Source: a virus | Direction: 5' to 3' (one strand) | DNA length: 52,006 nt | Virus record (IMG/VR): IMGVR_UViG_3300045988_180472 | Span: 1-52,006 of that record | Part shown: in pieces, positions 1 through 52,006 of the stretch | Layout of the letters: every line of letters begins with the position of its first letter | Numbering within the stretch: position 1 is the first letter of the stretch | Made by a program: the position numbers and the translations under genes | Notes under the pieces: model-generated | The model's database searches: none | Seen by the model: the letters and a program-made list of their open reading frames with translations, nothing else | Told to the model about the DNA's origin: nothing

Positions 1-55
1 GCATCCGCAGGTAATCCATCTGAGACATACTCACCTCGCTTACTTTACCATGGCC
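1..55. repeat. 55-nt segment identical to the window end (51952..52006); marks circular closure or terminal redundancy of the assembly
   Basis: Direct comparison of the first and last 55 nt gives a perfect match. The minus-strand ORF starting in the terminal copy (51979) sits directly downstream of the ORF ending at 40. Confidence 0.9.
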
Positions 56-5459: not shown

Positions 5460-6080
5460 CTAGTTGTTATTATTGGTATTGGTGTAACCGTCTGCAATCC
5501 GCTGGTAGTTGACGCGCATTTTCTCGTTAAACGCGTCCGCAAACTCATCAGCGGTTATGCCAAGTTGGTACAGCAAATTGATGTAATGAGCTTCCCACAG
5601 CTGAAACAACCGTATGTCAAGTTCTGATACGGGTTCCGCCACAATAAGCACCATATGCGGCTGACCAATTTGCGACGTTACAGCCATCAGCTGCTCGAAC
5701 ATGGACATGCAAATATTACGCTGTTCCATCGGTCGAGTAATTCGCGGTTCATCGCAAAAACCAGCCCGCTCAAGCAGAGCAGCCAAATTTGGTGACAAGC
5801 CGTTTTTGTCTTGGTCGCTGCCAGTTATCCATGTCAAGCCAGCCGCGCCGACGAGATATTCGTAGAAGAAGAATACGTCAACCGCTTCTTCTACCAAATG
5901 GCGCTTGTTGATTTCTTTGTAGTCAGCAGGCCACCATGGCTTCCACGGAAGCTCGTTGAGCACTTCAACGATTTCAACATTCAGCGCGATAGCTGCTTGT
6001 TGGCGCGTCAAAGGACACTTGAGCTTTTCATGGTAGTCAGCTACCTCTGACATCAAATCAATCATATTGACAGATGCCAT
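5460..6080 (-). CDS. all-alpha NTP pyrophosphatase (dimeric dUTPase/dCTPase-like, dUTPase_2 type)
   Basis: EIVEVLNELPWKPWW signature of the all-alpha NTP-PPase superfamily, in a nucleotide-metabolism context. Confidence 0.55.
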   Translation of the reverse strand: MASVNMIDLMSEVADYHEKLKCPLTRQQAAIALNVEIVEVLNELPWKPWWPADYKEINKRHLVEEAVDVFFFYEYLVGAAGLTWITGSDQDKNGLSPNLAALLERAGFCDEPRITRPMEQRNICMSMFEQLMAVTSQIGQPHMVLIVAEPVSELDIRLFQLWEAHYINLLYQLGITADEFADAFNEKMRVNYQRIADGYTNTNNNN

Positions 6081-6196
6081 ACGCTCACTCCATTTAAATG
6101 ATTAATTGATGATTTTTAAATAACACGCAATAGAATTCTTGTAAATAATTTTCTGAAAATTTTTTATGAAAAATTTTGTTCAACTGCGTCAATAGC

Positions 6197-6697
6197 TTAT
6201 TTGACCATGTAAAACACGCCGTCGGCGTTATTACCAGCCGGTAACGTTATAATGCCCTCCACGTGAGACCATCCAGCTGTCCCGCGGGCCAATTTCCACG
6301 CCTCATAACCCGGCCGCCTCGTATGCTGCATGAAGAATACCTCTTGCACGCCAGCTGCAATCAGCTGTTTGGTGCAATCCTCACACGGTTCGAGCGTGCA
6401 GAAACATATGCGATGGCGTCCTTCCGCCTTATTGCGCAATTCGCTCAGCTGCTGAAGTGCGCAAATTTCCGCATGGATAGCAGGACACGAGAGTCCATCC
6501 TGCTTGCGGCAATGACCTAACGCCAAGCACTGACGGCGTTCGTCAATATTGGCGCCATACACAATTTCAGGCTGTCCTGAAATCGGGCAATTGAGAATCA
6601 CACAGCCCACATGCTTGTCGAGGCACGTGGAGTGCATCGCGGCCTCCTTCACGCGCTTCAAGTGCTGGGCTAAAATAGGTGAAGCGAACAAGTACAT
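6197..6697 (-). CDS. dCMP (deoxycytidylate) deaminase
   Basis: Zinc-binding motifs CPAIHAE and EPCEDC (HAE...PCxxC). 166 aa. Confidence 0.8.
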   Translation of the reverse strand: MYLFASPILAQHLKRVKEAAMHSTCLDKHVGCVILNCPISGQPEIVYGANIDERRQCLALGHCRKQDGLSCPAIHAEICALQQLSELRNKAEGRHRICFCTLEPCEDCTKQLIAAGVQEVFFMQHTRRPGYEAWKLARGTAGWSHVEGIITLPAGNNADGVFYMVK

Positions 6698-6749
6698 CCT
6701 TTACTCCAATAAAGAAAATGCGGCGCAACTCGCGCCGCGCTGTCAACCA

Positions 6750-7403
6750 TTATTCTTTGAACCACACTTTACCGCAGGTCATTTTGCCTTGCTTGCACGT
6801 CTTGTGCATGAAGCAGTCTGGCCCAACATAATTGAACAACTCGGGAAACCACTTCTTACACTCGACAAGCACACGTTCAGCCAACATCTGCATCTCGAGC
6901 GTATTGCGCAAGCACAAGCGCAAATTCAAGAAATTCACCAATTGGCGTGCGTTGGTGGTGACTACGAGATTGACGCCAATGCCTTCTGGCAGAATCTGAC
7001 GAGCTTCAGACTTGTCGATGCCTTCATCAATCAACTGGTCATACAGCCGCAGCGTCTGCTCAACATGAGCGCGAACAAGCGCATTCTTCGCCATAGCTTC
7101 GCACATAAACACGGGATACTCGTCATATTTTTGGTAGTGTTGGCTCGAGCTGGTTGGGCTCTGCATGCGATGGCGCAACAGCTGCAAGCTGCAAGCACGA
7201 GAAATATCAGTAATTTTGAAAGTAACCGTGGCATGCTCAAACACGCTAGTGTGGTTAGCCTTCAGCAAGTATTGCGCGAGCGTGGGACTGTCAGATTTAT
7301 TCGCCATCTGCCGCATCGTCTGACTGCTCGCATAACACACGAGCACGTTCGGATTGGCGGTCTTATTGAGAATAACTACTTGCGGGTCATAAGTGTTAAC
7401 CAT
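6750..7403 (-). CDS. thyX: flavin-dependent thymidylate synthase ThyX
   Basis: ThyX signature RHRMQSPTSSSQHY (RHRxxxxxxxS). 217 aa. RBS GGAGAGG. Confidence 0.85.
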   Translation of the reverse strand: MVNTYDPQVVILNKTANPNVLVCYASSQTMRQMANKSDSPTLAQYLLKANHTSVFEHATVTFKITDISRACSLQLLRHRMQSPTSSSQHYQKYDEYPVFMCEAMAKNALVRAHVEQTLRLYDQLIDEGIDKSEARQILPEGIGVNLVVTTNARQLVNFLNLRLCLRNTLEMQMLAERVLVECKKWFPELFNYVGPDCFMHKTCKQGKMTCGKVWFKE

Positions 7404-18402: not shown

Positions 18403-19887
18403 ATGTGGGCGACTAAGGAGCAGATGGCTCGCGACGTGCGGCGTGAGCTGGCGCGTAGAAGTTTTGAATTTTTTGTGCGGGAGGTAACTCCCAACTACCT
18501 TATGGGCTGGGTGCACAGGAAAATTTGCACCGAGCTCGACCAGTTCTTGCAGGACTCTCTCAATGGGCGTTCGCCCAGACTCATGATAATGATGCCGCCT
18601 CGCTCTGGTAAATCGGAGCTGGCAAGCCGCAAATTTCCAGCGTATGCCTTGGGGCGGTATCCCGACCTGCAGTTTATCGCGACGTCGTACTCTGCTGATT
18701 TGGCGAGCAGAATGAGTCGTGATGTTCAGCGCTGCATAGAGAGTTCCGAATACACGAAAATTTTTCCGTCCACCAGACTGAGTTCTGGACGTGACGGATA
18801 CAGCCGAACGACGGACCTGTTCGAGATTGTACAGCACAATGGGGCGTACCGGTCAGCCGGTGTTGGCGGCGGTATTACTGGTATGGGCGGCAATATCTTG
18901 GTCATCGATGACCCCTTTAAAGACCGCGAAAGTGCTGATTCTCCAGTCCAGCGGCTGAAAGTTTGGGAGTGGTATACGTCGACACTATATACCCGTCTTG
19001 CTCCGGGCGGAGGTATATTGTTGATAAATACCCGTTGGCACACGGGCGACTTGTCAGGACGTCTACTGGAGATTGCGGCCAGAAAAGACGAAGACGAGTA
19101 TGCCGAGCAGTGGAAAATTGTGAGTTTTCCCGCTATTGCCACCCAAGACGAGGAGTTTAGAAAAGCAGGCGAACCGCTGCACCCAGAGCGGTATGATTTG
19201 CCTGCACTCCTCCGTATTAAGCAAGCAATCGGCTCCCGCAACTGGGAAGCCCTCTATCAGCAAAATCCCGTTCCCGACGGCGGCGCGATTTTCCTCGAGC
19301 GCTGGTTCAAATTCTGGTTCCACTCAGACCTGCCCCAAACGTTCGACCAAATGGCGATTTCGTGGGACTTGGCGTTTAAAGCATACGACACCAACGACTA
19401 TGTGGCTGGCACCGTATGGGGCAAAAAGGGCGCCGATTTTTATCTGCTAGACATTCTCCATCAGCGCTTAACCTTCACGCAAACCTTAGCGGCCATACGT
19501 GATTTACACGTTAAGTGGCCCAAGGCGAAGCGCATTTTCATTGAAGACGCGGCCAACGGGCCAGCAGTTATCGACTCGCTCTCACGGTCGATTCCCGGGA
19601 TTATCCCAGTAAAAGCTGATGGGTCGAAGGAATCGCGAGCGCACTCGGTAACTCCCCTGTTTGAAGCGGGCAACGTCTGGTTGCCCCACCCCTCGCTGCA
19701 TCGTGACGTGCAGGCGTTGATTACGGAATTTCTCCAATTTCCTTATGCGGAACATGACGACTTGGTGGACAGCACGACGCAGGCCATTCGAGAAATGACG
19801 CGTCGGCGTACTCTTGCCTTAAATGCCGAGTTGGCGAAGCCTGCGCCGACGGCCTCTCTACTAGGAGCGTTCTCTTATGGACGATAA
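18403..19887 (+). CDS. terminase large subunit
   Basis: Walker A MMPPRSGKSE, Walker B ILVIDDPF, C-terminal nuclease region. 494 aa. RBS AGGAGAG. Confidence 0.85.
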   Translation: MWATKEQMARDVRRELARRSFEFFVREVTPNYLMGWVHRKICTELDQFLQDSLNGRSPRLMIMMPPRSGKSELASRKFPAYALGRYPDLQFIATSYSADLASRMSRDVQRCIESSEYTKIFPSTRLSSGRDGYSRTTDLFEIVQHNGAYRSAGVGGGITGMGGNILVIDDPFKDRESADSPVQRLKVWEWYTSTLYTRLAPGGGILLINTRWHTGDLSGRLLEIAARKDEDEYAEQWKIVSFPAIATQDEEFRKAGEPLHPERYDLPALLRIKQAIGSRNWEALYQQNPVPDGGAIFLERWFKFWFHSDLPQTFDQMAISWDLAFKAYDTNDYVAGTVWGKKGADFYLLDILHQRLTFTQTLAAIRDLHVKWPKAKRIFIEDAANGPAVIDSLSRSIPGIIPVKADGSKESRAHSVTPLFEAGNVWLPHPSLHRDVQALITEFLQFPYAEHDDLVDSTTQAIREMTRRRTLALNAELAKPAPTASLLGAFSYGR

Positions 19888-21433
19888 CAAATTTAGCTCG
19901 CTGAGGCTGTCGCCGGCGATGCTTGACGAGCTTTTCACGCCGACAGCACCAAGACAGTATACGGTTGACGAAATTCGGGAAATGTTCAAACCCGCCGCAA
20001 CGCTTGGTGCGGCTCAAGATGTCCAGCTGGCCATGGACCAGCAGCTCATGGACACCGGCGTCTATTCGCTGATTCAGCACGCGTACAACTTGGGACAAGG
20101 CGTTGCGCCCCAGTTCATGGGGTATGGCGCATTGCAAGGGCTGGCGCAAAACGGGCTTATACGGGCATGTATTGAGACCGTGGCGGACGACATGGTCCGC
20201 GAGTGGATAGAGCTGAAGAGTTCGGATGACTCGGTTGAGCCTGAGCAAATAGCGCGACTTGAGCGGGCGATGCGAAACTTCAACGTGCGGGGCGTTTTCC
20301 ATGAGGCGGCAGAATACGTGGGGTATGAAGGCGGCGCGATGATTTTCATCGACACAGGAGCCGCCCCTGAGGAACTCGAAAAACCCCTCAATCTGTCCGA
20401 GTATTCTATGGAGCTCAGGCAAAACAAGTTGAAGGGCTTCACGGTTCTTGACCCTGTCAACCTGTTCCCGGGCGACTATAACTCGCTCTATCCGATGAAA
20501 AAGGACTACTACAAGCCCAAATACTGGTACGTCCTCGGCACCAAAGTCCACTCGTCGCGGCTGATTCGCTTGGTGGCGAATGAGTGCCCGACGCTCTTAA
20601 AGCCTGCGTATAACTTCTTTGGCGTCCCTCAAGCCCAGCTGTTATATGACTACGTGCTTCACTTCCAAGATTGCCGAATCGCCGTAACGCGATTGCTGAA
20701 GAAATTCTCGTTGCTCACGTTCAAGACGAACATTGGCGAAATTCTTTACGCACAGGGTGGTACTCAGGAAATCGACGCGCGCATCAACTTCATGCTGCGG
20801 ACGATGAACAACCAAGGCGTCTGGGTAATGGACACGACCGAAGAAGCCCAGAAACTCGAAACGCCGCTCAGCGGGCTAACGGACATCGTCAAGCAAAATC
20901 TCGAGTTCCTGACGGCCATCAACCGCACGCCTGCAGTCAAGCTGTTGGGAATCAGTCCGTCCGGATTCAATGCGACTGGTGAAAGTGACATACGGAACTA
21001 CTACGACCATGTGTTGTCGCAGTGCAACAAGGTGTTCCGCCATGGCTTGGAGACCGTGTTGAAAATCCTGCAGCTCCACTGCTTCGGCAAAATCAACACC
21101 AGCATTGACTTTGACTTCAAGCCGCTGGGACAAGAAGACAAAGCATCGTTGGCGATGACCCAGAAGACAAAAATCGAAACGCTCGCTACGGCCGTTGGTG
21201 CGAACTTCATTACCGAGTACGAGGGTAGAGCGGCAATTGCGAACGATCCCGATTCGGGTATTGACATTGGGGCTGAACCGCCGCAGGAGCTCAAGGACAA
21301 GATTGAAGCCCAGCAAGGTTGCGAAGACCCGATGGCTGGCATGGGGGCTCCCACTGACCTTGCCGACCTTATGGGGCCCACAGGCGAGCAGGATGACGAG
21401 CCTCAGCTCGTCGCGCCTCAGGCGGCCATGTAA
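19877..21433 (+). CDS. portal protein
   Basis: 518-aa protein directly after TerL and before the MuF-like gene. Acidic C-terminus. Assignment by position and size. Confidence 0.65.
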   Translation: MDDNKFSSLRLSPAMLDELFTPTAPRQYTVDEIREMFKPAATLGAAQDVQLAMDQQLMDTGVYSLIQHAYNLGQGVAPQFMGYGALQGLAQNGLIRACIETVADDMVREWIELKSSDDSVEPEQIARLERAMRNFNVRGVFHEAAEYVGYEGGAMIFIDTGAAPEELEKPLNLSEYSMELRQNKLKGFTVLDPVNLFPGDYNSLYPMKKDYYKPKYWYVLGTKVHSSRLIRLVANECPTLLKPAYNFFGVPQAQLLYDYVLHFQDCRIAVTRLLKKFSLLTFKTNIGEILYAQGGTQEIDARINFMLRTMNNQGVWVMDTTEEAQKLETPLSGLTDIVKQNLEFLTAINRTPAVKLLGISPSGFNATGESDIRNYYDHVLSQCNKVFRHGLETVLKILQLHCFGKINTSIDFDFKPLGQEDKASLAMTQKTKIETLATAVGANFITEYEGRAAIANDPDSGIDIGAEPPQELKDKIEAQQGCEDPMAGMGAPTDLADLMGPTGEQDDEPQLVAPQAAM

Positions 21434-22242
21434 TGGCGAAAACACTTCGTCCCATCAGGCCAAACGCGGGCGTTCGAGTGATGTACGGCAAGGACATTAC
21501 TCGATTGCTCAAGGCCATGAGCAAGGACTTGGAAGACGTCATCTTCAGGACGTACTCCAAACAGGAGCACAAGTTTTTGCCACAGGTCGCGCAAGATGCA
21601 GCTCCTGTTCCCGCCTTGACGAGCGAAATTTCGAAAGCTATGAAACGCTGGATGCGGCGATGGGATATTGCCGCTCAGCGTATAGCTGAGAATTTCGTAA
21701 AATCCATCGACAAGCACTCGCTGAAAGCCCTCGAATACGAGTTGAAGCAGGCTGGTTTCACGGTGAAGCTGGACAAAGCCTTCCGGTCGAACACCATGAT
21801 ACAGGCCCTCATCAAAGCCAACGTGGCGTTGATCAAGTCCATACCAGAGCAGTATCAGACTGACTTGTATGGAATAGTGATGCGCGGTATCACGGACGGC
21901 GTAGGTGCTCAGGATATCAAGAAGGAAATTCACGGGCGCTATGTAAAGTCTGAAAAGCGCGCTTTATTTATCGCCCGAGACCAAACGAACAAGGCGACGG
22001 AAACCATCAAGCGCGAACGCGATATGGAGCTCGGTATTACTCGGGCGATTTGGATTCACGTGCCCGGGTTGAAGACGAGCAGAGCCTCCCACAAGAAGAT
22101 GAATGGCAAAGAGTTTATTCTGGCGGAAGGTTGCTATGACGAGGCGGAAAAGCGCAAGGTCCACACTGGCGAATTGCCCGGCTGCCAATGCACCTACAAG
22201 GTTATTGTCGATGAGTTCGGCGACGATTGGGATAAAAAATAG
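21433..22242 (+). CDS. head morphogenesis protein (Mu gpF / SPP1 gp7-like)
   Basis: 269 aa, following the portal gene. MuF-like region around RAIWIHVPGLKTSRASHKKMNGKEF. Confidence 0.6.
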   Translation: MAKTLRPIRPNAGVRVMYGKDITRLLKAMSKDLEDVIFRTYSKQEHKFLPQVAQDAAPVPALTSEISKAMKRWMRRWDIAAQRIAENFVKSIDKHSLKALEYELKQAGFTVKLDKAFRSNTMIQALIKANVALIKSIPEQYQTDLYGIVMRGITDGVGAQDIKKEIHGRYVKSEKRALFIARDQTNKATETIKRERDMELGITRAIWIHVPGLKTSRASHKKMNGKEFILAEGCYDEAEKRKVHTGELPGCQCTYKVIVDEFGDDWDKK

Positions 22243-22301
22243 CCCGCACTCAACGTGCGGGCTTGGCTGTATGCGGCTATGCGAAATATGGGCGATTCGA
22301 G

Positions 22302-22424
22302 TTATTGGCTCGTTTCGCCTTCATCGTCATCATTTTCGCCGTCATAAATGATGTCGTCGTCTGTACATACAAACTTTGAATTGCGATTGGCGCCGTCTTC
22401 ACGCGTAATATCAGTCTGTGACAT
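22302..22424 (-). CDS. possible small acidic protein (40 aa), antisense to the late module
   Basis: ATG at 22424 with an AAATGGAGG RBS at ideal spacing. Product MSQTDITREDGANRNSKFVCTDDDIIYDGENDDDEGETSQ. Uncertain. Confidence 0.25.
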   Translation of the reverse strand: MSQTDITREDGANRNSKFVCTDDDIIYDGENDDDEGETSQ

Positions 22425-22498
22425 GGCAAACCTCCATTTTTTCTTTAATATATACGACGTTAACAAATAAATGTACACAGTTTCATGGAGAAAAATAA

Positions 22499-25339
22499 AT
22501 GGGCCAGAAAACGCTTTGGGATTCTCTCAAGAGGCTGGCGAAGGACGGATGGATTACCATCAAGCCGAATGGCCGGCGCAACAAAGGCCAGCCCGTTTTG
22601 CTTGGCGAGAATGGCGAAATTCTTGGCGGCATGGGCGGCAAGTTTAACGGCCTCAAGATGAAGGACGTCAAAGAGGCCAATAAGAAGCTCAAGCAGAAGA
22701 ACGAGTACGCTAAAAGCGGCCATTCCAAGGGCGAAAGTCCTGAGTTGTACAACGCGCCGATTCCTTCAGCTGCTCCTAATGCGCCGGCTATCCCGGGCGA
22801 TTACAAGAATTCTCCCGATTTCAAGAAGCTGACGCCTGACGCCCAAACCATGGTGAATCAGACGGCGGCGCACATCAAGAAGTTGCCGCTCGCCAAGATG
22901 GCAGAACACGGTCCCGCCCTGTATGAAGAGCTCGACAAGGTGATTAAAGAGCTGGCGAATAACGGTTCCAAGTTCGATTCCAAGGTCTCCGAAATGATGA
23001 CGAACTTGAACATCGCAGCCATGTCAGCAGCGACTGCCACGCCGACGCCTCCCAATCAACCTAAGCCGTCTAAATCGGAGACCAGTCAGTTTGAAGGTTA
23101 TGACAAGCTGTCGAGCCTGAATGCGAGCGAAATTGATAAACACGCCAAGGTTATCAATGAGAGCAAGGCGGCGCCCGAGGACAAGGCGTTCATGATGGAC
23201 GCGCTGAGACAGGCGACGTCCTATATGGCAGAGAATGGAATGGACGCGGCCGCAGCTAAAGTCTTGAGCGGCATCAATGGCGTTTGGGTGGCGTCGAGCA
23301 ATCCCGACGCGCTCAAGAAGGCAAAAGACGCGTTGTCCGGCTTGCTTGGTGAGATGAACGCGACCGTAGAGCTGGTGAACGCCGGCGGAACATACGCCAG
23401 CAAACAGGAAGCCGGACAACCAGCTCAACCGGCTCAACCAGCTCAACCAGCTCAGCTCCAAGCCGAAATTCCCCATACGCAAAAAGCGGACATTTCTCAG
23501 TACCAGCAGTTTGCTGGTTATAGTGGCCTTGACAAGTACACCAAGAACTGGTTCGATGAAAAAGCCAACGCGCTGATGAAGGCTGATATGAGTCAGTCCG
23601 ATAAGGACATGCTGACGTATGGCATGCAGTTGGCGCTCCAAAATGGTGTCGATCCCAAGAAGAAGGCTGAAAAGTATGGTGGCAAGTTCTTGGGTAAAGC
23701 GCTTGGCGTGATGGATGCTATTGGTGGTATTGCGCAGGCCAATAAGCAGAACAATCAGAAGATGCTCGACTTCTACAAGAATGCCGCTAAGCAGTCAATC
23801 GAGGCCTTGGGTGGAACCACGCAGGGCGCGTCGAATACGCCAGCTGCCACCACACCGAGCTCGGTATCCCCGACGCCTTCCGCAGCTGGTGAAATTCTGC
23901 CGAGCCAGAAGGGTAATCTTAAGGATTACAAGAAATTCATGGGCTATAACAGCCTGAATATGACAAGCAAGATGGTTCTGGATGACGCTGTTCAGAGCCT
24001 CCAAAAGGCGATGTCTGATATGAATCTGGACGTCGCCGATATGGCGAAAATCACCAAAGGCGTTCAAGTAGCTCTCAGCAAGTCTGTAGACGGCAAATTG
24101 GGCCCCGATGTCCAGCATATGCTGATTGCGGCGAAGAGTGCTGCTAAAAAGCTCTATGGGTCAGAAGCGTATAATGAGGCGATAACGAAAGCGCATAAGT
24201 ATGCGAAAATAATCGACCAGCTGCCTATGCCTACAGAAGCTCAGCAGAAAGAAATGGCCGCGTTGGCGGCTAAGCAGGCTGAATATGAGAAGCAGCAGGC
24301 GTTCAATAAAACGCCTTCGTTCACGCAGCAGACGACGGACGCCGACCGTAACAAGTTCAAGTACGCGACTGACAAATTCTTAAGCGACCAAGCCAAGGCG
24401 GATGTAGCGGCTATTCCCAACACGCTGCAGAATGGAAAATTCGCAAAAACCAAGCATAAGAACAAGTTCGAACAAGAACTTGGCGAAGGCGGTGACTCGT
24501 TTAAGAAATACTCTGGTATGGCTTACGGGCTGATGAAGTCGAGCAATAAAGACCTCGCAACCAAAGCCCAGAATATTGCCGTAGCAGTAGCTAACGGGCA
24601 AATGGAAGGTAGCAAGGCTATTTCATTGCTTCAGAGCATGGACGCCATGCAGAAGGTCAAAGACTACACTGACCCCAAAAGCGAGCCGCCAGCGTATACC
24701 AGTATCCACAGCGATGACATTCATAACTCTGGGACGTTCAAGGCTTCAGCTTTGCCGCCCGATCCGAAAGCGGCTGTGATGCAATATACGGGTAATGCCT
24801 ATGCGTCCTTAAACGGCCAGTTACGGCAGAACCAGAAGCTGAGCGCCAAAAATAAGAAGTTGATGGATGATATAAACAAGGCCTTCGCATTACCTGAAGT
24901 CAAGGCGAAGGACAATCTCACAGTCTACCGTGGAATTACGTCCACGCAGCTTCAGCATTTGCCGATTGGTGGCACGTTTACGAACAAGGGGTTCGTTTCG
25001 ACATCTTCTGATGCCTATGAGGCGTCGAAATTCGCCGGCGATAATGGCGCGTTGATGGAAATTCGGGTAAAGAAAGGCCAGCCTGCACTATCGGTCAAAG
25101 ACGTGTCTACATTCCCGGGTGAAAAAGAAGTCCTTCTTCCTACGGCGACCCAATTCACGGTGGTTGGGAAGAAAATTGGTCCGGGAGGCCGTCCTGTGCT
25201 GATTGTGGATTACGTCCCGCCCGCGAACGTCGCAAAAGACCGAGCTTTGACTTACCTGCAACGAGCTGGTTGGGCAAGTACGCCTAAAGACGATGCTGAG
25301 CGCCGTCAAGCCATATTTGACGCGCTGCGTCGCATGTAA
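22499..25339 (+). CDS. large head-module protein with three ~100-aa N-terminal repeats and a C-terminal arginine-type ADP-ribosyltransferase domain (T4 Alt-like; probable capsid-packaged effector)
   Basis: C-terminal region has YTGNAYASLNGQLR (NAD-binding helix), then TVYRG (catalytic Arg), FVSTSS (STS) and FPGEKEV (ExE) with R-to-STS and STS-to-ExE spacings of ~30-40 residues. PAQ x4 linker. Three repeats each containing (F/Y)xGYxxL. RBS GGAGAAAAATAA before the ATG. Confidence 0.75.
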   Translation: MGQKTLWDSLKRLAKDGWITIKPNGRRNKGQPVLLGENGEILGGMGGKFNGLKMKDVKEANKKLKQKNEYAKSGHSKGESPELYNAPIPSAAPNAPAIPGDYKNSPDFKKLTPDAQTMVNQTAAHIKKLPLAKMAEHGPALYEELDKVIKELANNGSKFDSKVSEMMTNLNIAAMSAATATPTPPNQPKPSKSETSQFEGYDKLSSLNASEIDKHAKVINESKAAPEDKAFMMDALRQATSYMAENGMDAAAAKVLSGINGVWVASSNPDALKKAKDALSGLLGEMNATVELVNAGGTYASKQEAGQPAQPAQPAQPAQLQAEIPHTQKADISQYQQFAGYSGLDKYTKNWFDEKANALMKADMSQSDKDMLTYGMQLALQNGVDPKKKAEKYGGKFLGKALGVMDAIGGIAQANKQNNQKMLDFYKNAAKQSIEALGGTTQGASNTPAATTPSSVSPTPSAAGEILPSQKGNLKDYKKFMGYNSLNMTSKMVLDDAVQSLQKAMSDMNLDVADMAKITKGVQVALSKSVDGKLGPDVQHMLIAAKSAAKKLYGSEAYNEAITKAHKYAKIIDQLPMPTEAQQKEMAALAAKQAEYEKQQAFNKTPSFTQQTTDADRNKFKYATDKFLSDQAKADVAAIPNTLQNGKFAKTKHKNKFEQELGEGGDSFKKYSGMAYGLMKSSNKDLATKAQNIAVAVANGQMEGSKAISLLQSMDAMQKVKDYTDPKSEPPAYTSIHSDDIHNSGTFKASALPPDPKAAVMQYTGNAYASLNGQLRQNQKLSAKNKKLMDDINKAFALPEVKAKDNLTVYRGITSTQLQHLPIGGTFTNKGFVSTSSDAYEASKFAGDNGALMEIRVKKGQPALSVKDVSTFPGEKEVLLPTATQFTVVGKKIGPGGRPVLIVDYVPPANVAKDRALTYLQRAGWASTPKDDAERRQAIFDALRRM

Positions 25340-25430
25340 ACCAGTAGAAAGCGAACTCTTTCAACAGAGGAGGTCAAAATGTAACGCGCGCGTACATTAT
25401 CAAAAGCAAGCAGGTGAACGTGGAGACTAT

Positions 25431-27095
25431 ATGCCGCCTTCCTTTTTCAAACTAGCTCTTGACCGTAACTCCGTGCGGAGTTTCGACAAGAACGGGTTTA
25501 TGCACGTCGCAAGCTCGCATATCACCAAAGCCATGGTTTGTCCGTATCGGGGCGATGAAATTCCCGATTACAAAAATCTGGGACTCGATGCGGACAAAAT
25601 TTACCATCTTTTGCGTGACCCTCAAGAACTCGAGAAGTCCGTGCCCACGTGGAAAAATCTGCCGCTCCACATCGAGCACACCGTGGACTCGGCTGATGAC
25701 CCCCAACATGACACGCGAATTGGCACCGTGGGTTCCAACGTCAAATGGAACCCTCCCTTTATTGATGCCGATCTCGCCATATGGGACAAAGCCGCTATCG
25801 ATGCAATCGAGGATGACGAGCTCCGCGAACTCTCATGTGCGTACTTTTACGACCCAGAGCTCAAATCAGGCGAATATGAGGGCCAGCATTACGACATCAT
25901 CATGCGCAATATTCGAGGCAATCATGTTGCGCTGGTGGATAAAGGCCGTGCAGGCCCTCAAGTAATTGTGGCAGACGCCGCATTAAAACCTAAGTCGGCA
26001 GGTGAAACTATGGCAAAACGCAAAATCAACCGCAACAAACTTTTTGCTGCGTTTGACGCCAACCCCTTTATCGAGCGCGCGGAAGTTACCGCGGCCGACC
26101 TGCTTCGCGTCATCAATTGCGTCGAGGCTCAGGCTGAAGGCCTTAACCCGGCGGACCTCAATCTGCCGTGTCGACCCGACTCCTCGCTTGACGAAATCAT
26201 CCGCGCGTGCATGCCGGGTGCTGATGAAGCGGTGCAAACGGCCGTGAAAACTTTGGTAAACGCATTTTCCGAAGCTCCCAAAAACGAGGAAAACACCACT
26301 ATGGACGAAAAAGACCTCAAAAGCGCGATGGACGCTTGCGGCCTTGACGCCGAAGACCCCGCCACCTCCAAGGCGTTTGCCGAGGGCGTGAAGTACGGCG
26401 AGAGGGTGGAAAAGGACGAGCCCAAAAAGCTGGACAGCGAACACGAATCCGAGGGCATGAAGGAAGCCATGGACGCGTGCGGTCTGGACGCTGATGACCC
26501 CGTGGCCTCCAAGGCCTTCGCTGAGGGCGTCAAATACGGCGAAAAAGTCGAAAAAGACGAGCCCAAGAAGCTGGACAGTGAACACGAATCTGAAAGCGCC
26601 AAAGAAGCCATGGACGACGAGCCGGACTTCAGCGGCAAGTCTCCCGAAGAAATCTTCGCTATGGGCGTCGACTATGGCAAGAAGCACGCGGCTGCTGCCG
26701 ACGCGGATGACGACAAAGTCGACCCCGAGGCCGTGGAAGTTGTGGAAGCTGCCATGGACCGCGCTCTTGCTCGCAAGGGCGTCAGCGGCAAGCAGCTCGA
26801 ACGTCGCATTATGGCGAAAGTGCGTGGTCTCTACGCAGCGGCTGCCGATGTCGCCCCCGAGGTTGGTCAGCTCGATCCCATGGCGTTTGACTCCGCCGAA
26901 GGCATCTATGGGTACGCTCTCAAGCAGCTTGGCATTTCCCTGCGTGGAACTCCCGCCAGCGCTTACAAGAGCGTGTTCAGCGCCCTCAAGCAGCAGAAGG
27001 AAAATTCCATCATCGCGATGGACAAGGCCCTCCAGTCTCGAGCTTCCACCTTCGATGGTAAGTTCAAGGGCCTCAACACCATCAAAATTTCCTAA
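25431..27095 (+). CDS. DUF2213-like head protein (putative prohead protease/scaffolding protein) with an acidic repeat-containing C-terminal half
   Basis: N-terminal region FMHVASSHITKAMVCPYRGDEI...LRDPQELEKSVPTWKNLPLHIEH resembles DUF2213. Two ~47-aa tandem repeats AMDACGLDA(E/D)DP...KKLDSEHESE. The ATG at 25431 has a GGAG RBS. Confidence 0.55.
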   Translation: MPPSFFKLALDRNSVRSFDKNGFMHVASSHITKAMVCPYRGDEIPDYKNLGLDADKIYHLLRDPQELEKSVPTWKNLPLHIEHTVDSADDPQHDTRIGTVGSNVKWNPPFIDADLAIWDKAAIDAIEDDELRELSCAYFYDPELKSGEYEGQHYDIIMRNIRGNHVALVDKGRAGPQVIVADAALKPKSAGETMAKRKINRNKLFAAFDANPFIERAEVTAADLLRVINCVEAQAEGLNPADLNLPCRPDSSLDEIIRACMPGADEAVQTAVKTLVNAFSEAPKNEENTTMDEKDLKSAMDACGLDAEDPATSKAFAEGVKYGERVEKDEPKKLDSEHESEGMKEAMDACGLDADDPVASKAFAEGVKYGEKVEKDEPKKLDSEHESESAKEAMDDEPDFSGKSPEEIFAMGVDYGKKHAAAADADDDKVDPEAVEVVEAAMDRALARKGVSGKQLERRIMAKVRGLYAAAADVAPEVGQLDPMAFDSAEGIYGYALKQLGISLRGTPASAYKSVFSALKQQKENSIIAMDKALQSRASTFDGKFKGLNTIKIS

Positions 27096-43551: not shown

Positions 43552-46194
43552 ATGGCCTATGATTTCAAATATATCCGTACAGGCACGGGCGAACTGTCTG
43601 GCCCGTCCATGATTTGGCAGACTGAGCAAGCTCTGACGCAAATTGGTACGTATGCCGATGAAGCGAATACCAAGGCTGATGAAGCTCTGGATACGGCCAA
43701 TACCGCGCTCAATAAAGCCAATGAGGCGGCTGAAGCTGCCGAGCGAGCTCAGAATACGGCTGACGCAGCTCAAGCCGCCGCTAACCATGCTCAGGAGACC
43801 GCCGACGCTGCTCAGGTTGCGGCGGACAACGCCCAAGATACCGCTGATGAAGCTCTTGAGACCGCCCAGAAGGGCGTAGCTGACGCAGCCAAAGCTCAGG
43901 CTGCTGCAGACAAAGCTCAGGCCACAGCTGATGCAGCTCAGGACGCGGCCGATGCTGCTCAGCTGACGGCGGATAACGCCCAGAATGCGGCTGATAAAGC
44001 TCAGGACGCGGCTGATGCTGCCCAGCAGACTGCCAACGATGCGCTCAATGCCACCAGCAACTCGCAAGGCTCGGCTAACGTCGCACAAGATACGGCTGAC
44101 AATGCTCTGCTTGTAGCGCAGTCCACTCAGCAGGCATTCTATGAGCACGTTCACGAGTATACTTCTCAGATTGCCAAGGCGCTGGGAGAATTCGAGGCGG
44201 ACAACACTACGGTGAATTTCGACAATTTCACCGATTCCGTCAAGCTGTACATCACCAGCCCTGATGCGTCCATTACAGGGCCTAACGGCAAGGTTAACTC
44301 ACCGTTCTACCTGTGGAACTTCACTACGGACGACCGTTCGTCTACTGCCCAGTTTGTATACGCAGCGAACGGCCTTACGTACAGCCGATATGGTACCATA
44401 GGGCAGAACGACCTCGTCCCCGGCACCGATACTTACACGCTCGAGAACAACAGCAAAAACGCCATCCTCACGTGTAATGGCGTCGCCAGTGGTATGACTA
44501 TCACCAAGAGCGGTTCGCTGACCAACACGTGGACCGCGTCCGATACTCATAATTCGTATATCACTGGTACGTGGAACATCAAAGGTATCACCAACGGAAC
44601 AATCGATCTCAACGGCGTTACAATCGCCAACTTGTCCGATACGGGATTCTATCCTACTAGACAACAACGACTACAGGAAGACAACACCAGCTTCGTAATC
44701 GAAGACATGACCTATAGCGCTGACGACGGCCTGACCATCAAGGTGACAGTCCAGTGGCTGAATATCGATAGTCAAATTAGCTGGGACAGCTGGAAGGTGG
44801 ACACGCCTGCGGTGGACACGTCTGCAGTTGACAACGTGACTATCAAGTATAATTCGTCTAACGAGCTGCAGGCGAAGGACGTGGCGATTGGGGGGAATCA
44901 GGGTGATCTTGCGAGCGCACGGGGGCTGTTCAACGCAAAAAGTACAGGGGCCGTAGACTGCAACACCCTCACGAATCAGGGCGTGTATGCCATTCATCAA
45001 TCGGGCACGACGAACGGCCCCGGCTTCCCGATAAAGATGTTGCTCTTGTGTTCCGCAAATTCTTTGTTGACCACGCAACTTGGCATTTCTTCGGGCGGCG
45101 CAATGGCTACGGCTCAACGGCTTGCCCTGAGAAACAGAAACAACGATGGCAAATGGAGCAAGTGGGCGGAGTTTTTCAATAGTCTTAGGACTGGTGACGG
45201 CCTCAAATCCATCAACGGCATCATCTCCGTGCCCGAGTATGAGGGCGCGACGGCATCGACAGCCGGGACAAGCGGCCTTGTACCGCCCGCAACCGCCGGG
45301 CAACAGGATAGCTTTCTGACCGGAGGCGGGGAATACAAGCCCGCGCTCTCGACTGGCGGCGGCGTCCTGACGGGCAGCATGCAGATCAATGATCCCGCAA
45401 ATGTGATTGGGTCGGCACCCTCTACCGATACTGAGCGCGGCCTGTTTCTTGGCGACAAAAACAGCGTGGTCATGGGCGGGTTCGATGTCATACAGCGCGC
45501 ATCGGATAACGCTAAGTACGCGCAAGTCTATTCAAAAAATAGCAGAGGAGATATAGCGTCCCTTGCTGCTGTGACTTATGAAGACGGCACGAGAGAACTT
45601 GTGGCGGATAGCCCTCTCCAAATCAACGACATACAAATAAAACAGGTCGTTGACGGCGGAAGAAGGGTAATCGTGCTCTCTGGGGCGCGTGGCAAGGAAG
45701 GGTATTCATTTCGTTTTTCCCCGGACACGGGGGAGGCATATATGGATGGCCGTGTAATACATGCGAAAGCCGATACCGCCGGATACGCAGATACCGCCGG
45801 AAGTGCTCCGGCAAATGGCGGGACGGCATGGGCCGCGAACCGCCTGTGCTTAACAGAGGGCGGTGAAATAGCATGGAGTTGGACGGGACAAGGAGGTCAA
45901 CCCAAGTGGTTGTGGGGAGGCAATGACGGCGTCAACATGCGCGTCTACAACCCCGCCAATTTCAGCGTGAACTATGCGAACAGTGCGGGCAGTGCTCCTG
46001 CGAACGGAGGGACGGCATGGGCGGCGACCGTTACGCCCAATGTTGTAAATGTCCACTATTCAACATTGCCCGCAGGAGGAACATGGCTGGTCATGAGTCT
46101 TGGTAATAACGATGGTGGTCAATTTCAAGAATTGAATTTTTCACAGGTCGCAGGGGGCACGAGAACATTCGGGCTTGCTATCAGAATAGCTTAA
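43552..46194 (+). CDS. long tail fiber protein with Ala-rich coiled-coil shaft
   Basis: 880 aa. Many DTADAAQ / ADKAQ heptad-like repeats across 43700-44100. Gly/Thr-rich distal region. Confidence 0.65.
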   Translation: MAYDFKYIRTGTGELSGPSMIWQTEQALTQIGTYADEANTKADEALDTANTALNKANEAAEAAERAQNTADAAQAAANHAQETADAAQVAADNAQDTADEALETAQKGVADAAKAQAAADKAQATADAAQDAADAAQLTADNAQNAADKAQDAADAAQQTANDALNATSNSQGSANVAQDTADNALLVAQSTQQAFYEHVHEYTSQIAKALGEFEADNTTVNFDNFTDSVKLYITSPDASITGPNGKVNSPFYLWNFTTDDRSSTAQFVYAANGLTYSRYGTIGQNDLVPGTDTYTLENNSKNAILTCNGVASGMTITKSGSLTNTWTASDTHNSYITGTWNIKGITNGTIDLNGVTIANLSDTGFYPTRQQRLQEDNTSFVIEDMTYSADDGLTIKVTVQWLNIDSQISWDSWKVDTPAVDTSAVDNVTIKYNSSNELQAKDVAIGGNQGDLASARGLFNAKSTGAVDCNTLTNQGVYAIHQSGTTNGPGFPIKMLLLCSANSLLTTQLGISSGGAMATAQRLALRNRNNDGKWSKWAEFFNSLRTGDGLKSINGIISVPEYEGATASTAGTSGLVPPATAGQQDSFLTGGGEYKPALSTGGGVLTGSMQINDPANVIGSAPSTDTERGLFLGDKNSVVMGGFDVIQRASDNAKYAQVYSKNSRGDIASLAAVTYEDGTRELVADSPLQINDIQIKQVVDGGRRVIVLSGARGKEGYSFRFSPDTGEAYMDGRVIHAKADTAGYADTAGSAPANGGTAWAANRLCLTEGGEIAWSWTGQGGQPKWLWGGNDGVNMRVYNPANFSVNYANSAGSAPANGGTAWAATVTPNVVNVHYSTLPAGGTWLVMSLGNNDGGQFQELNFSQVAGGTRTFGLAIRIA

Positions 46195-47846: not shown

Positions 47847-48884
47847 TTACACTCCTTCCGCCTTAAGCTGCTGGTCATTCGCGCGAACGTCATTCATAAG
47901 CTGAGCGAGGTAAATCAACTTCTGCAGACCATTGGCGTACTTCATAATCGAGCTGGCCCAATACTTTTGCGGGCGCGTTTTAGGCTGGCAATAGTAGATG
48001 GTGTTGTAATTCATACCATTAGGTATAATACTGCGAGCGCCCAACATCGCACCAACAACGGCGCAATTAGTATCCGTGTCATAACCCAACTTGGTGACTT
48101 CGCCCATGATTTCTTCAAGGCTGGAACCAGTACGCAGGCCAAAAGTGAAAGCGTGCTGCAAAGCATACAGAACCCAACCATGCCCAAGAACAGGCAATTC
48201 ACCACTCACAGCTTGTATAACGCTTGGCACAATGAATGCCCGCTTGCAGAAGTCAAGCGTCATTTCTTTAATACGAGCGGGCTCATAGCCTTGCAGAGCG
48301 TAGTACAAACCGGCAATAAACGCATGGTTGGCGTCAATGCAAGTACGCGAGCGATGCGTCAGCTCGGCATCCCAAGTAGCCAAGTCTTCAATGCGTGAGG
48401 CAATGCGGCCATTACGCGTGATTTGCGCGCCATAGTTGGATAAAAAGAACAGCGCAGCAACGGGTGCAACGCGCATAAGTGCGCCGTTGCCTTGCGCATG
48501 TTCATTAATATCCATATAAATGCCAGTCCGCTGGAGTGCCGCAGCAACAGTAGACCCGCAATCGACAGGCCGCGAATAATACCAATCGCGATAAGCCGCC
48601 TTCATAGTCTTCGCGAAGTCGCCGTGGTTTGTGACGTCCGTCATATCTTGACCGTTCAGCACAACCTCACGCGCGATTTCATACACCTGCCGAAGCAGCA
48701 AACTCATCATTTCAGAATCGTCAGTTAACTGGCCCACCATGAGCTTATGCGGTCCGCCTTCAATTGGTGCAGTCAAACCATTGGGAAAGTTCTTCTGCAC
48801 CGCGTCGGGCGGATAGAACTCGCAGCCTGCGCCGATAGCGTCACCTGCAATTAAGCCAAAAATCATGTTTTCAATTCGAGTCAT
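47847..48884 (-). CDS. ADP-ribosyl-glycohydrolase (DraG/ARH family)
   Basis: GLIAGDAIGAGCEF, GQLTDDSEM, GNGALMRVAP and DTDTNCAVVGAMLGA match the ARH/DraG signature regions (Mg-binding DDT and DTDT motifs). AGGAGG RBS before the ATG at 48884. Confidence 0.8.
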   Translation of the reverse strand: MTRIENMIFGLIAGDAIGAGCEFYPPDAVQKNFPNGLTAPIEGGPHKLMVGQLTDDSEMMSLLLRQVYEIAREVVLNGQDMTDVTNHGDFAKTMKAAYRDWYYSRPVDCGSTVAAALQRTGIYMDINEHAQGNGALMRVAPVAALFFLSNYGAQITRNGRIASRIEDLATWDAELTHRSRTCIDANHAFIAGLYYALQGYEPARIKEMTLDFCKRAFIVPSVIQAVSGELPVLGHGWVLYALQHAFTFGLRTGSSLEEIMGEVTKLGYDTDTNCAVVGAMLGARSIIPNGMNYNTIYYCQPKTRPQKYWASSIMKYANGLQKLIYLAQLMNDVRANDQQLKAEGV

Positions 48885-51817: not shown

Positions 51818-51979
51818 TCACATAAATGTCAGGTAGGAGCCTACCAATGACCCGATGCCGAAGGCTATCAGAATTTTTCCAATCAATCGTCGTCCCAAGT
51901 TGCCGCCATACTCATACATCAGCAGCCCGCCAACTATCATCGTTAGGCTCAGCATCCGCAGGTAATCCATCTGAGACAT
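51818..51979 (-). CDS. small membrane protein (53 aa), begins inside the terminal 55-nt identity
   Basis: ATG at 51979 (= 27 in the first copy) with a GAGGTGAGT RBS. Hydrophobic, IVGGLLMYEYGG. Confidence 0.45.
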   Translation of the reverse strand: MSQMDYLRMLSLTMIVGGLLMYEYGGNLGRRLIGKILIAFGIGSLVGSYLTFM

Positions 51980-52006
51980 ACTCACCTCGCTTACTTTACC
52001 ATGGCC
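51952..52006. repeat. Second copy of the 55-nt terminal identity
   Basis: Identical to 1..55. Confidence 0.9.

Follow-up and report, generated by a model that had tools for sequence, protein, structure and literature searches.

The window analysed here, the whole 52,006-nucleotide stretch of IMG/VR virus record IMGVR_UViG_3300045988_180472, is the genome of an uncultured human-gut myovirus whose head module includes a gene for a 946-amino-acid (aa) protein that ends in an ADP-ribosyltransferase (ART) domain. We found that this C-terminal domain has the R-S-ExE (arginine-type) mono-ADP-ribosyltransferase fold with intact catalytic residues and, as judged from its sequence and its predicted model, is very probably an active enzyme. 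At its N-terminus, the protein carries a module of about 60 aa which, in other phages, is repeatedly attached to proteins of the procapsid interior. Head-associated ARTs are known from phages as a kind of protein. What is new is the carrier module, which has no earlier description, together with a deletion-tolerant linker, discrete ART alleles on a near-identical backbone, a distal ADP-ribosylhydrolase gene and an antisense open reading frame (ORF) that seemingly co-diverges with the ART domain [Table 1].

An intact arginine-type ART domain

A preliminary description of the gene, made from the DNA letters without database searches, had proposed an arginine-type ART at the C-terminus from four motifs, all of which are present: YTGNAYASLNGQLR at aa 763, TVYRG at aa 808, FVSTSS at aa 832 and FPGEKEV at aa 872. 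The Pfam family ADPrib_exo_Tox (PF03496) matches aa 751-889 (E = 1.5e-22; 80.3 bits, the cut-off being 23.4), and there is a further match to the NAD:arginine ART family (PF01129; E = 1e-11), which puts the motifs far beyond chance. In the PDB, the best sequence matches of the domain are the C3 exoenzymes, followed by Plx2A, Tre1, ExoS/T, CDTa and HopU1; in the sequence alignment with C3, the motifs TVYRG, FVSTSS and FPGEKEV pair with F-R-G, S-T-S and Q-x-E, respectively. Across 55 diverse sequences, Y763, N772, R776, S834 and E877 do not vary, and R811, G812 and E875 hardly vary. The AlphaFold2 model of aa 725-946, built on the alignment of these 55 sequences, is confident (predicted local distance difference test (pLDDT) 92.4; predicted template modelling (pTM) score 0.85), and a Foldseek search of the PDB with this model returned C3bot with NAD (1gzf; E = 2.3e-12, TM-score 0.64-0.71), and next VIP2, ExoS, Tre1 and iota (Ia)/CDTa. 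The C-terminal arginine-type ART is thus supported by hidden Markov models, by PDB sequence matches and by fold matches of a confident model; the profile and structure comparisons that the preliminary description had proposed as a check gave clear similarity to the ART fold. An ExE in place of the QxE of the ADP-ribosylating toxin turn-turn (ARTT) loop predicts arginine as the acceptor, and this motif in the window's sequence suggests that its enzyme is arginine-specific.

Close homologues of the 946-aa protein (n = 52, 548-949 aa; hereafter the family) were all found on human-gut metagenome contigs of about 50 kb, in clusters with up to 110 member sequences each. The R, STS and ExE residues are kept in 27/27 aligned family members, and the ratio of nonsynonymous to synonymous substitution rates (dN/dS) of the ART domain is 0.18-0.22, which is indicative of purifying selection. 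Outside the family, relatives match the ART domain only (2,674 representatives at E ≤ 0.001), and none of these representatives covers aa 590-750 or the C-terminal tail. Word-index protein searches with the ART domain alone or with the N-terminal 100 aa returned family fragments only. Among phage protein families, the ART domain alone matched phrog_802 (Alt-like, 3e-11), phrog_3895, phrog_595 and phrog_21789; in the last, a virion structural protein ends in an ART. The N half of phrog_595 is matched by the window's MuF protein and its C half by the window's ART domain; hence phrog_595 is a MuF-ART fusion. The nearest predicted viral structures (BFVD) are portal-ART and MuF-ART proteins, ARTs named 'minor capsid protein', and Alt. 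Separately, we noticed that some of the nearest ART relatives outside the family are giant proteins (800-4,350 aa), in each of which 4-9 separate ART-like stretches occur.

A shared N-terminal module of head proteins

The N-terminal module (N-module), a candidate head-association leader, has the core W-I-T-x-K-P-N-G ... G-M-G-G-K-F-N-G at aa 18-51. No match had been recognised earlier for the N-terminal part of the protein, which does not hold for aa 3-80: this segment shares 40% identity (E = 2e-12) with the N-terminus of a DUF5710+DUF2213 protein of another phage, and the N-module also matches phrog_25904 and phrog_62, the latter having the module at its own N-terminus. A pattern scan located the N-module on 163 IMG/VR contigs. 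We counted its partners in 50 representative proteins of 183-1220 aa; DUF5710 was found in 13, DUF2213 in 12 (with the module at the N-termini) and Phage_portal_3 in six (at the portal C-termini), followed by LPD3 (three), DdrB-like ParB (three) and metallopeptidase-like regions (two). ART is a partner in this family only. Comparisons of the N-module with Pfam gave noise only (E up to 1), and BLASTP of the ART protein against the DUF2213 protein of the window itself found no common segment.

The N-module was found in four arrangements, i.e., on a gene of its own that lies between MuF and DUF2213 (the window's arrangement), fused to the scaffold N-terminus, fused to the portal C-terminus, and on one or two genes directly after the capsid gene. 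The slot between MuF and the scaffold carries variable cargo in many phages. In Morganella phage Mecenats66, for instance, ORF61 (L087 6007-10122) is an annotated helicase of 1371 aa headed by the N-module, and its gene lies between those for a minor head protein and the prohead protease. Loci with two N-module-headed genes, usually 1-3 kb downstream of the capsid gene, were also seen (L045, L048, L059, L061, L067, L071 and L072); two such genes per phage would mean several tagged cargo proteins. Prophage copies of the N-module occur mainly in Pasteurellaceae, Enterobacter, Sutterella and Desulfovibrionaceae.

The cultured phage Pa193 has the same head module as the window. Its DUF2213 protein gp24 stays inside the capsid at the five-fold vertices, and gp20 and gp21, the products of its portal-to-scaffold slot, were detected in virions by liquid chromatography-mass spectrometry (PMC11456595). 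DdrB of P1 is a head-packaged protein as well (PMC5512222). Because the N-module is repeatedly attached to procapsid-interior proteins, we infer that the ART protein is head cargo. This attachment is the best available evidence for such a role, and the presence of the ART protein in virions is, in our judgement, rather likely.

A deletion-tolerant linker and a conserved C-terminal half

The N-module and the catalytic half are joined by a long linker. The four-fold PAQ stretch of the preliminary description is present at aa 308. The three repeats with an F/YxGYxxL motif that it had placed in this part stand as to the motifs (aa 198, 338 and 480), whereas their period is about 140 aa rather than about 100 aa. 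In a shuffling-controlled Smith-Waterman comparison, repeats R2 and R3 were similar with z = 11.8 and R1 and R2 with z = 4.4, in the first ~60 aa only; self-BLASTP of the 946-aa protein gave no internal repeats. Two further candidate repeats, R0 and R4, were ruled out (z < 2.5 in the shuffling test). Natural in-frame deletions of about 90-480 aa, with varied end points, lie between aa ~100 and ~590, and both aa 1-~100 and aa 598-946 are kept in all family members. These alignments are best explained if the length of the linker is not critical. The dN/dS of the linker is 0.12-0.16, i.e., purifying selection persists.

For the family-specific helical region (aa 598-735), an AlphaFold2 model of aa 590-946 on a shallow family alignment reached a pLDDT of 49.8; its confidence for aa 598-735 is low, and this model was not used in the fold search. 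The two helices of the basic C-terminal tail occupy positions 185-198 and 208-221 of the model of aa 725-946. The tail has 88% mean identity within the family and is absent from other ARTs. The idea that the tail is a copy of the coat-binding helices of the scaffold was left without sequence support, as BLASTP against the window's DUF2213 protein found no shared segment.

Discrete ART alleles and an antisense ORF

Two relatives (L003 and L005) share 97-100% nucleotide identity with the window in the flanking MuF and DUF2213 genes. Along the ART gene, the identity drops steadily to 57-58% at 24750-24899 (aa 751-800) and is back to 99% directly after the stop codon. The synonymous divergence (dS) follows the same course, being 0.16-0.25 for aa 1-190, 0.40-0.61 for aa 191-590 (linker), 0.81-0.95 for aa 598-735, 1.1-1.4 for aa 736-905 (ART domain) and 0.16-0.42 for aa 906-946 (tail), with a dN/dS of 0.05-0.31 along the whole protein. 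We then compared 69 ART domains (68 of the family and the window's), which fall into at least five discrete groups; their identity to the window's ART domain is either 60-70% or 90-100%, with no intermediates. From these sequences, the pattern looks like old alleles swapped by recombination between conserved flanks, not like recent positive selection.

A second, smaller dip in identity (84-92%, with indels, in a backbone that is 96-100% identical) coincides with an antisense ORF between the MuF and ART genes. This ORF is kept in every family locus examined, is confined to the ART-bearing family, and encodes an acidic peptide with no Pfam or PHROG match. Each of the four ART allele groups inspected has its own variant of the peptide, which is suggestive of co-divergence with the ART domain, four being few cases. 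The peptide might, speculatively, be a candidate inhibitor or immunity peptide. The hairpin upstream of the ART gene (dG -19.6 kcal/mol, z = -4.5) had been taken for a mark of modular insertion; its U-run lies on the minus strand, and it is the terminator of the antisense ORF instead. In a relative (L111), compensatory changes preserve the stem.

A distal ADP-ribosylglycohydrolase

The other arm of the genome encodes an ADP-ribosylglycohydrolase with metal-binding and TDD motifs, whose probable ATG is preceded by AGGAGG. Its closest solved relatives in the PDB are DraG and Tri1, and its scores against the NCBIfam models of DraG and Tri1 fall well short of the equivalog cut-offs (61.6 vs 337 and 38.7 vs 490, respectively). 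One PDB entry, 6dre, is matched by both window proteins, the ART matching Tre1 (6dre_B) and the hydrolase matching Tri1 (6dre_A). The hydrolase gene is present on 4/4 IMG/VR contigs that carry the ART. The hydrolase may be a candidate eraser or an enzymatic immunity factor for the ART.

Gene, head module and genome

The reading frame given in the preliminary description (946 aa, plus strand, from an ATG) is correct, as is its ribosome-binding site, GGAG, 8 nt 5' of the ATG. The protein is basic (isoelectric point (pI) 9.3) and has zero Cys. The gene order TerL, portal, MuF, 946-aa gene, DUF2213, cement protein and major capsid protein likewise agrees with the slot proposed for it, after the portal and MuF genes and before the scaffold and capsid genes; the module is E217/Pa193-like, and the slot of the 946-aa gene is that between MuF and the DUF2213 scaffold. 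The DUF2213 gene was listed with a start at 25293, which would overlap the 3' end of the ART gene by 47 nt. Since its relatives are 554 aa long and GGAG precedes the ATG at 25431, the latter start is likely, which leaves the ART and DUF2213 genes without overlap.

A 55-bp terminal direct repeat (window positions 1-55 and 51952-52006) indicates a circular assembly, and therefore a complete genome of about 51,951 bp. The structural arm begins with TerS ahead of TerL and continues after the capsid gene with an E217-type sheath, baseplate and fibres. On the other arm are a ligase, PolA, an Enc34-type single-stranded DNA-binding protein (SSB), dUTPase, dCMP deaminase, ThyX, a DUF2800 nuclease, a VapE-type primase and an SNF2 helicase. 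The nucleotide-metabolism genes form a cluster at 5460-7403 on the minus strand (dUTPase_2, 5460-6080; dCMP/cytidine deaminase, 6197-6697; ThyX, 6750-7403) that adjoins PolA, SSB and the DUF2800 nuclease; this cluster may reflect a changed dNTP pool or modified DNA. The genome was found to have no tRNA genes, and none of its ORFs of ≥300 aa is an integrase. The head-module DNA had no megablast match in 50,697 phage records or E. coli genomes, and a scan of 185,579 species genomes gave no relative of the ART protein and no prophage copy, so the host could not be assigned from it. The phage appears to be non-temperate. An 880-aa protein of the tail-fibre region (43552-46194, plus strand) has an N-terminal alanine-zipper (Lpp-like) match, a sequence likeness consistent with a Gram-negative host.

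Table 1. Features of the ART-protein locus and associated genes in the window.
Feature	Position	Strand	Remarks
Portal gene (Phage_portal_3)	19877..21433	+	Family match
MuF-like head morphogenesis gene	21433..22242	+	PF04233, phrog_324; polypeptide separate from the ART protein
Intrinsic terminator of the antisense ORF	22241..22263	-	9-bp GC stem and U-run; overlaps the MuF stop codon
Antisense ORF	22302..22424	-	40 aa (40-43 aa in the family); acidic, pI 4.05; GGAGG ribosome-binding site
Whole ART-protein gene	22499..25339	+	ATG start; 946 aa plus stop
N-terminal module, candidate head-association leader	22505..22678	+	aa ~3-60
Linker	22796..24265	+	aa ~100-589; helical, low-complexity stretches, Ser/Thr/Pro-rich stretch
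Linker repeats, divergent, ~140 aa	R1 23066-23413; R2 23480-23848; R3 23906-24253	+	
PAQ repeat	23417-23454	+	aa 308; 9-nt tandem repeat, 4.2 copies
Family-specific helical region	24290..24703	+	aa 598-735; in every family member; invariant columns from K598
ART domain	24704..25213	+	aa 736-905; Pfam, C3 alignments, AlphaFold2, Foldseek
Catalytic residues	R811 24929-24931; S834-T-S836 24998-25006; E875-x-E877 25121-25129	+	
Basic C-terminal tail	25214..25336	+	aa 906-946; two predicted helices
Putative scaffold gene, DUF2213 (Pa193 gp24-type)	25431..27095	+	Likely ATG 25431, not the listed 25293
ADP-ribosylglycohydrolase (DraG/Tri1-like)	47847..48884	-	~345 aa; PF03747, E = 2e-36; replication/early arm

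Relationship to known systems

Head-module ARTs and MuF-ART or portal-ART fusions are an already described class (PMC9503650, PMC5576092, PMC11699363), and many phage ARTs, especially myoviral ones, are fused to head proteins or encoded beside them and are probably packaged (PMC9503650, PMC5512222, PMC5576092). T4 Alt and the Alt-like proteins of phrog_802, the best PHROG match of the window's ART, likewise belong to contractile-tailed phages and are large proteins whose C-terminal half holds an R-S-E ART. In phrog_802, the match is confined to profile positions 402-507 of 674, with no similarity outside the ART domain, and the BLASTP alignment with an Aeromonas Alt-like protein (30% identity) covers aa 752-902 of the window protein only; kinship with Alt therefore does not extend over the full length, as the ART domain alone aligns. 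The preliminary description had also likened the position of the gene to that of T4 alt, which it took to be portal-adjacent. T4-type alt genes lie between ligase and baseplate genes (e.g., between DNA ligase and tail-tube/baseplate genes in Aeromonas phage 60AhydR15PP), whereas the window's gene lies between MuF and the scaffold. The logic of T4 Alt (made late, packaged, injected, modifying arginines of host proteins) is the one proposed here (PMC9503650, PMC5512222). Packaging and processing of Alt are known by experiment, whereas for the window protein we infer them. We know of no ADP-ribosylhydrolase partner in T4.

MuF-ART and portal-ART fusions and the MuF polymorphic toxins (Jamet 2017, PMC5576092; Iyer 2022, PMC9503650; phrog_595) place the same ART fold on head-interior proteins, and their neighbourhood is the same as here. 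In them, payloads that vary at the C-terminus are borne by a conserved carrier at the N-terminus, an arrangement to which that of the window protein may correspond. In those toxins, MuF is part of the same polypeptide; the window protein has no PF04233 match and MuF is a separate protein encoded upstream, so that membership in the MuF-toxin family was ruled out. The carrier is instead the N-module with a long linker, and several N-module partners are structural proteins, not toxins. MuF toxins also have an immunity gene directly downstream and belong to temperate phages, whereas here DUF2213 follows downstream in a genome with neither an integrase (among ORFs of ≥300 aa) nor a prophage copy in the 185,579 species genomes. 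The Bxa-BAH-Bsi system of a Bacteroides stercoris prophage likewise combines, in a gut phage, an ART, an ADP-ribosylhydrolase and a small non-enzymatic ORF by the toxin (PMC11699363); the two proteins that neutralise Bxa are an ADP-ribosylhydrolase and a small binding protein (PMC11699363). Bxa has an N-terminal MuF domain and adjacent immunity genes; in the window, the hydrolase gene is 22.5 kb away, the small ORF is upstream and antisense, and both have candidate roles.

In Tre1-Tri1 of the Serratia type VI secretion system and in DraT-DraG, both of which act on arginine, Tre1 is matched by the window's ART, and Tri1 and DraG by its hydrolase; the window's genes are not adjacent and are not part of such a secretion system. 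Lastly, in polyvalent and P1 Dar-type head cargo (PMC5512222), the comparison rests on the N-module, which heads polyvalent helicases (phrog_62, e.g., the 1371-aa protein), DdrB-ParB proteins and LPD3 scaffold fusions in head clusters. Polyvalent proteins have at least two effector domains, whereas the window protein has one recognisable catalytic domain, and no autoprocessing metallopeptidase domain was found in its 946 aa.

Proposed mechanism and alternatives

We propose that the protein is built from five parts, i.e., the N-module, a helical linker made of repeats, the family-specific helical region, an ART of the C3/VIP2/Alt type and the basic two-helix tail. It would be made late, along with the head proteins, and would enter the procapsid by its N-module and perhaps also by its tail, the N-module (~60 aa) setting it inside, at or near the portal or scaffold. 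Ejected with the DNA into the next host cell, it would ADP-ribosylate arginines of host proteins in an NAD+-dependent manner as infection begins, to take over the cell or to counter its defence. Restraint of the ART in the producing cell, or reversal of the modification after use, would fall to the hydrolase and possibly to the acidic antisense peptide. We hold this whole chain, from late synthesis and capsid loading to delivery of an arginine-specific ART under hydrolase or peptide control, to be slightly favoured.

Several observations weigh against it. The phage is uncultured and the argument for packaging comes from comparative context. The N-module profile gave noise only against the PDB (E ≥ 0.6). 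A protein of 103 kDa would have to pass the tail channel, as T4 Alt does. The terminator and the antisense gene separate the ART gene from MuF, so the ART gene may be regulated apart from the head operon, and a scan of 21400-25600 found no sigma-70-like promoter. The hydrolase gene is in the opposite arm, 22.5 kb from the ART gene, neither adjacent nor in one operon with it, and on contig 182178 a hydrolase with 99% identity to that of the window occurs together with an ART domain of only ~65% identity. Without co-variation with the ART allele, the hydrolase may serve another purpose; conversely, co-variation is not required of an enzyme that acts on the product and not on the toxin. Also, some ARTs of the R-S-E fold modify RNA, not protein (PMC11618068, PMC13617354).

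The same separation from MuF, together with the gene's own ribosome-binding site, is what a late cytoplasmic enzyme that is never packaged would have, its location in the head module reflecting timing only. Such an enzyme would ADP-ribosylate host or phage proteins in the producer, for host shutdown, a superinfection block or the tuning of assembly, and T4 ModA and ModB are phage ARTs that act without packaging (PMC9503650). The comparative nature of the case for packaging leaves room for this possibility. We consider it unlikely: the N-module, fused elsewhere to portals and scaffolds, would be needless for a purely cytoplasmic enzyme, it would be strange for a soluble one to carry a leader and a 600-aa linker, and a hydrolase in the replication arm would undo a late cytoplasmic modification.

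The likeness to Bxa raises a further alternative, namely a toxin or fitness factor freed at lysis that hits neighbouring bacteria or cells of the human gut, while the hydrolase and the peptide would give the producer immunity. As in the Bxa system (PMC11699363), an ART is accompanied in this genome by a hydrolase and by a small ORF beside the ART gene, and the discrete ART alleles resemble polymorphic-toxin diversification. The MuF domain is on a different polypeptide here, however, and no signal peptide, translocation or receptor-binding domain was recognised in the 946-aa protein; the full replication set (PolA, primase, ligase and ThyX), the lack of an integrase among ORFs of ≥300 aa and the lack of prophage copies in the species genomes scanned speak against it as well. 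We regard this alternative as quite improbable. Least probable is a mainly structural or internal-core head protein (scaffold-like, DNA-organising or ejection-channel) with a vestigial or merely binding ART: a likeness to scaffold proteins is seen in the long region of helical repeats and in the basic tail of two helices, and the slot adjoins the scaffold gene, but the family keeps R, STS and ExE intact and without variation, the ART domain is under purifying selection, and natural variants lose up to ~480 aa of the linker, which disfavours a precise structural role for it.

Going beyond the delivery of this one enzyme, the N-module, in a form of ~40-60 aa (W-I-T-V-K-P-N-G ... G-M-G-G-K-F-N-G), could conceivably be a general capsid-interior tag of Phage_portal_3/MuF/DUF2213 phages by which any payload is loaded; under this idea, the payloads would be ART, helicase, DdrB-ParB protein and peptidase. 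The hypervariable arginine-specific ART, the hydrolase and a co-diversifying acidic inhibitor of 40 aa would then make up a timed, reversible switch for host takeover. We put this forward tentatively, as a doubtful but possible extension.

Implications

Contractile-tailed phages are generally regarded as often delivering ARTs from their heads, and T4 Alt is, to our knowledge, almost the only one studied by experiment. The family described here is worth testing, being abundant in human-gut metagenomes and having a clean layout of tag, dispensable linker and enzyme; it also offers natural linker-deletion variants, a hydrolase that may act as eraser and a small peptide that may act as inhibitor. 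ORF61 of Mecenats66 is a cultured-phage handle on whether the N-module loads cargo into heads. Several ART alleles on one near-identical backbone also provide a natural experiment, which bears on the opponent that the ART races against. In essence, if the N-module is a capsid-loading tag, it would explain the variable slot in many head modules and could be usable for loading foreign proteins into phage particles.

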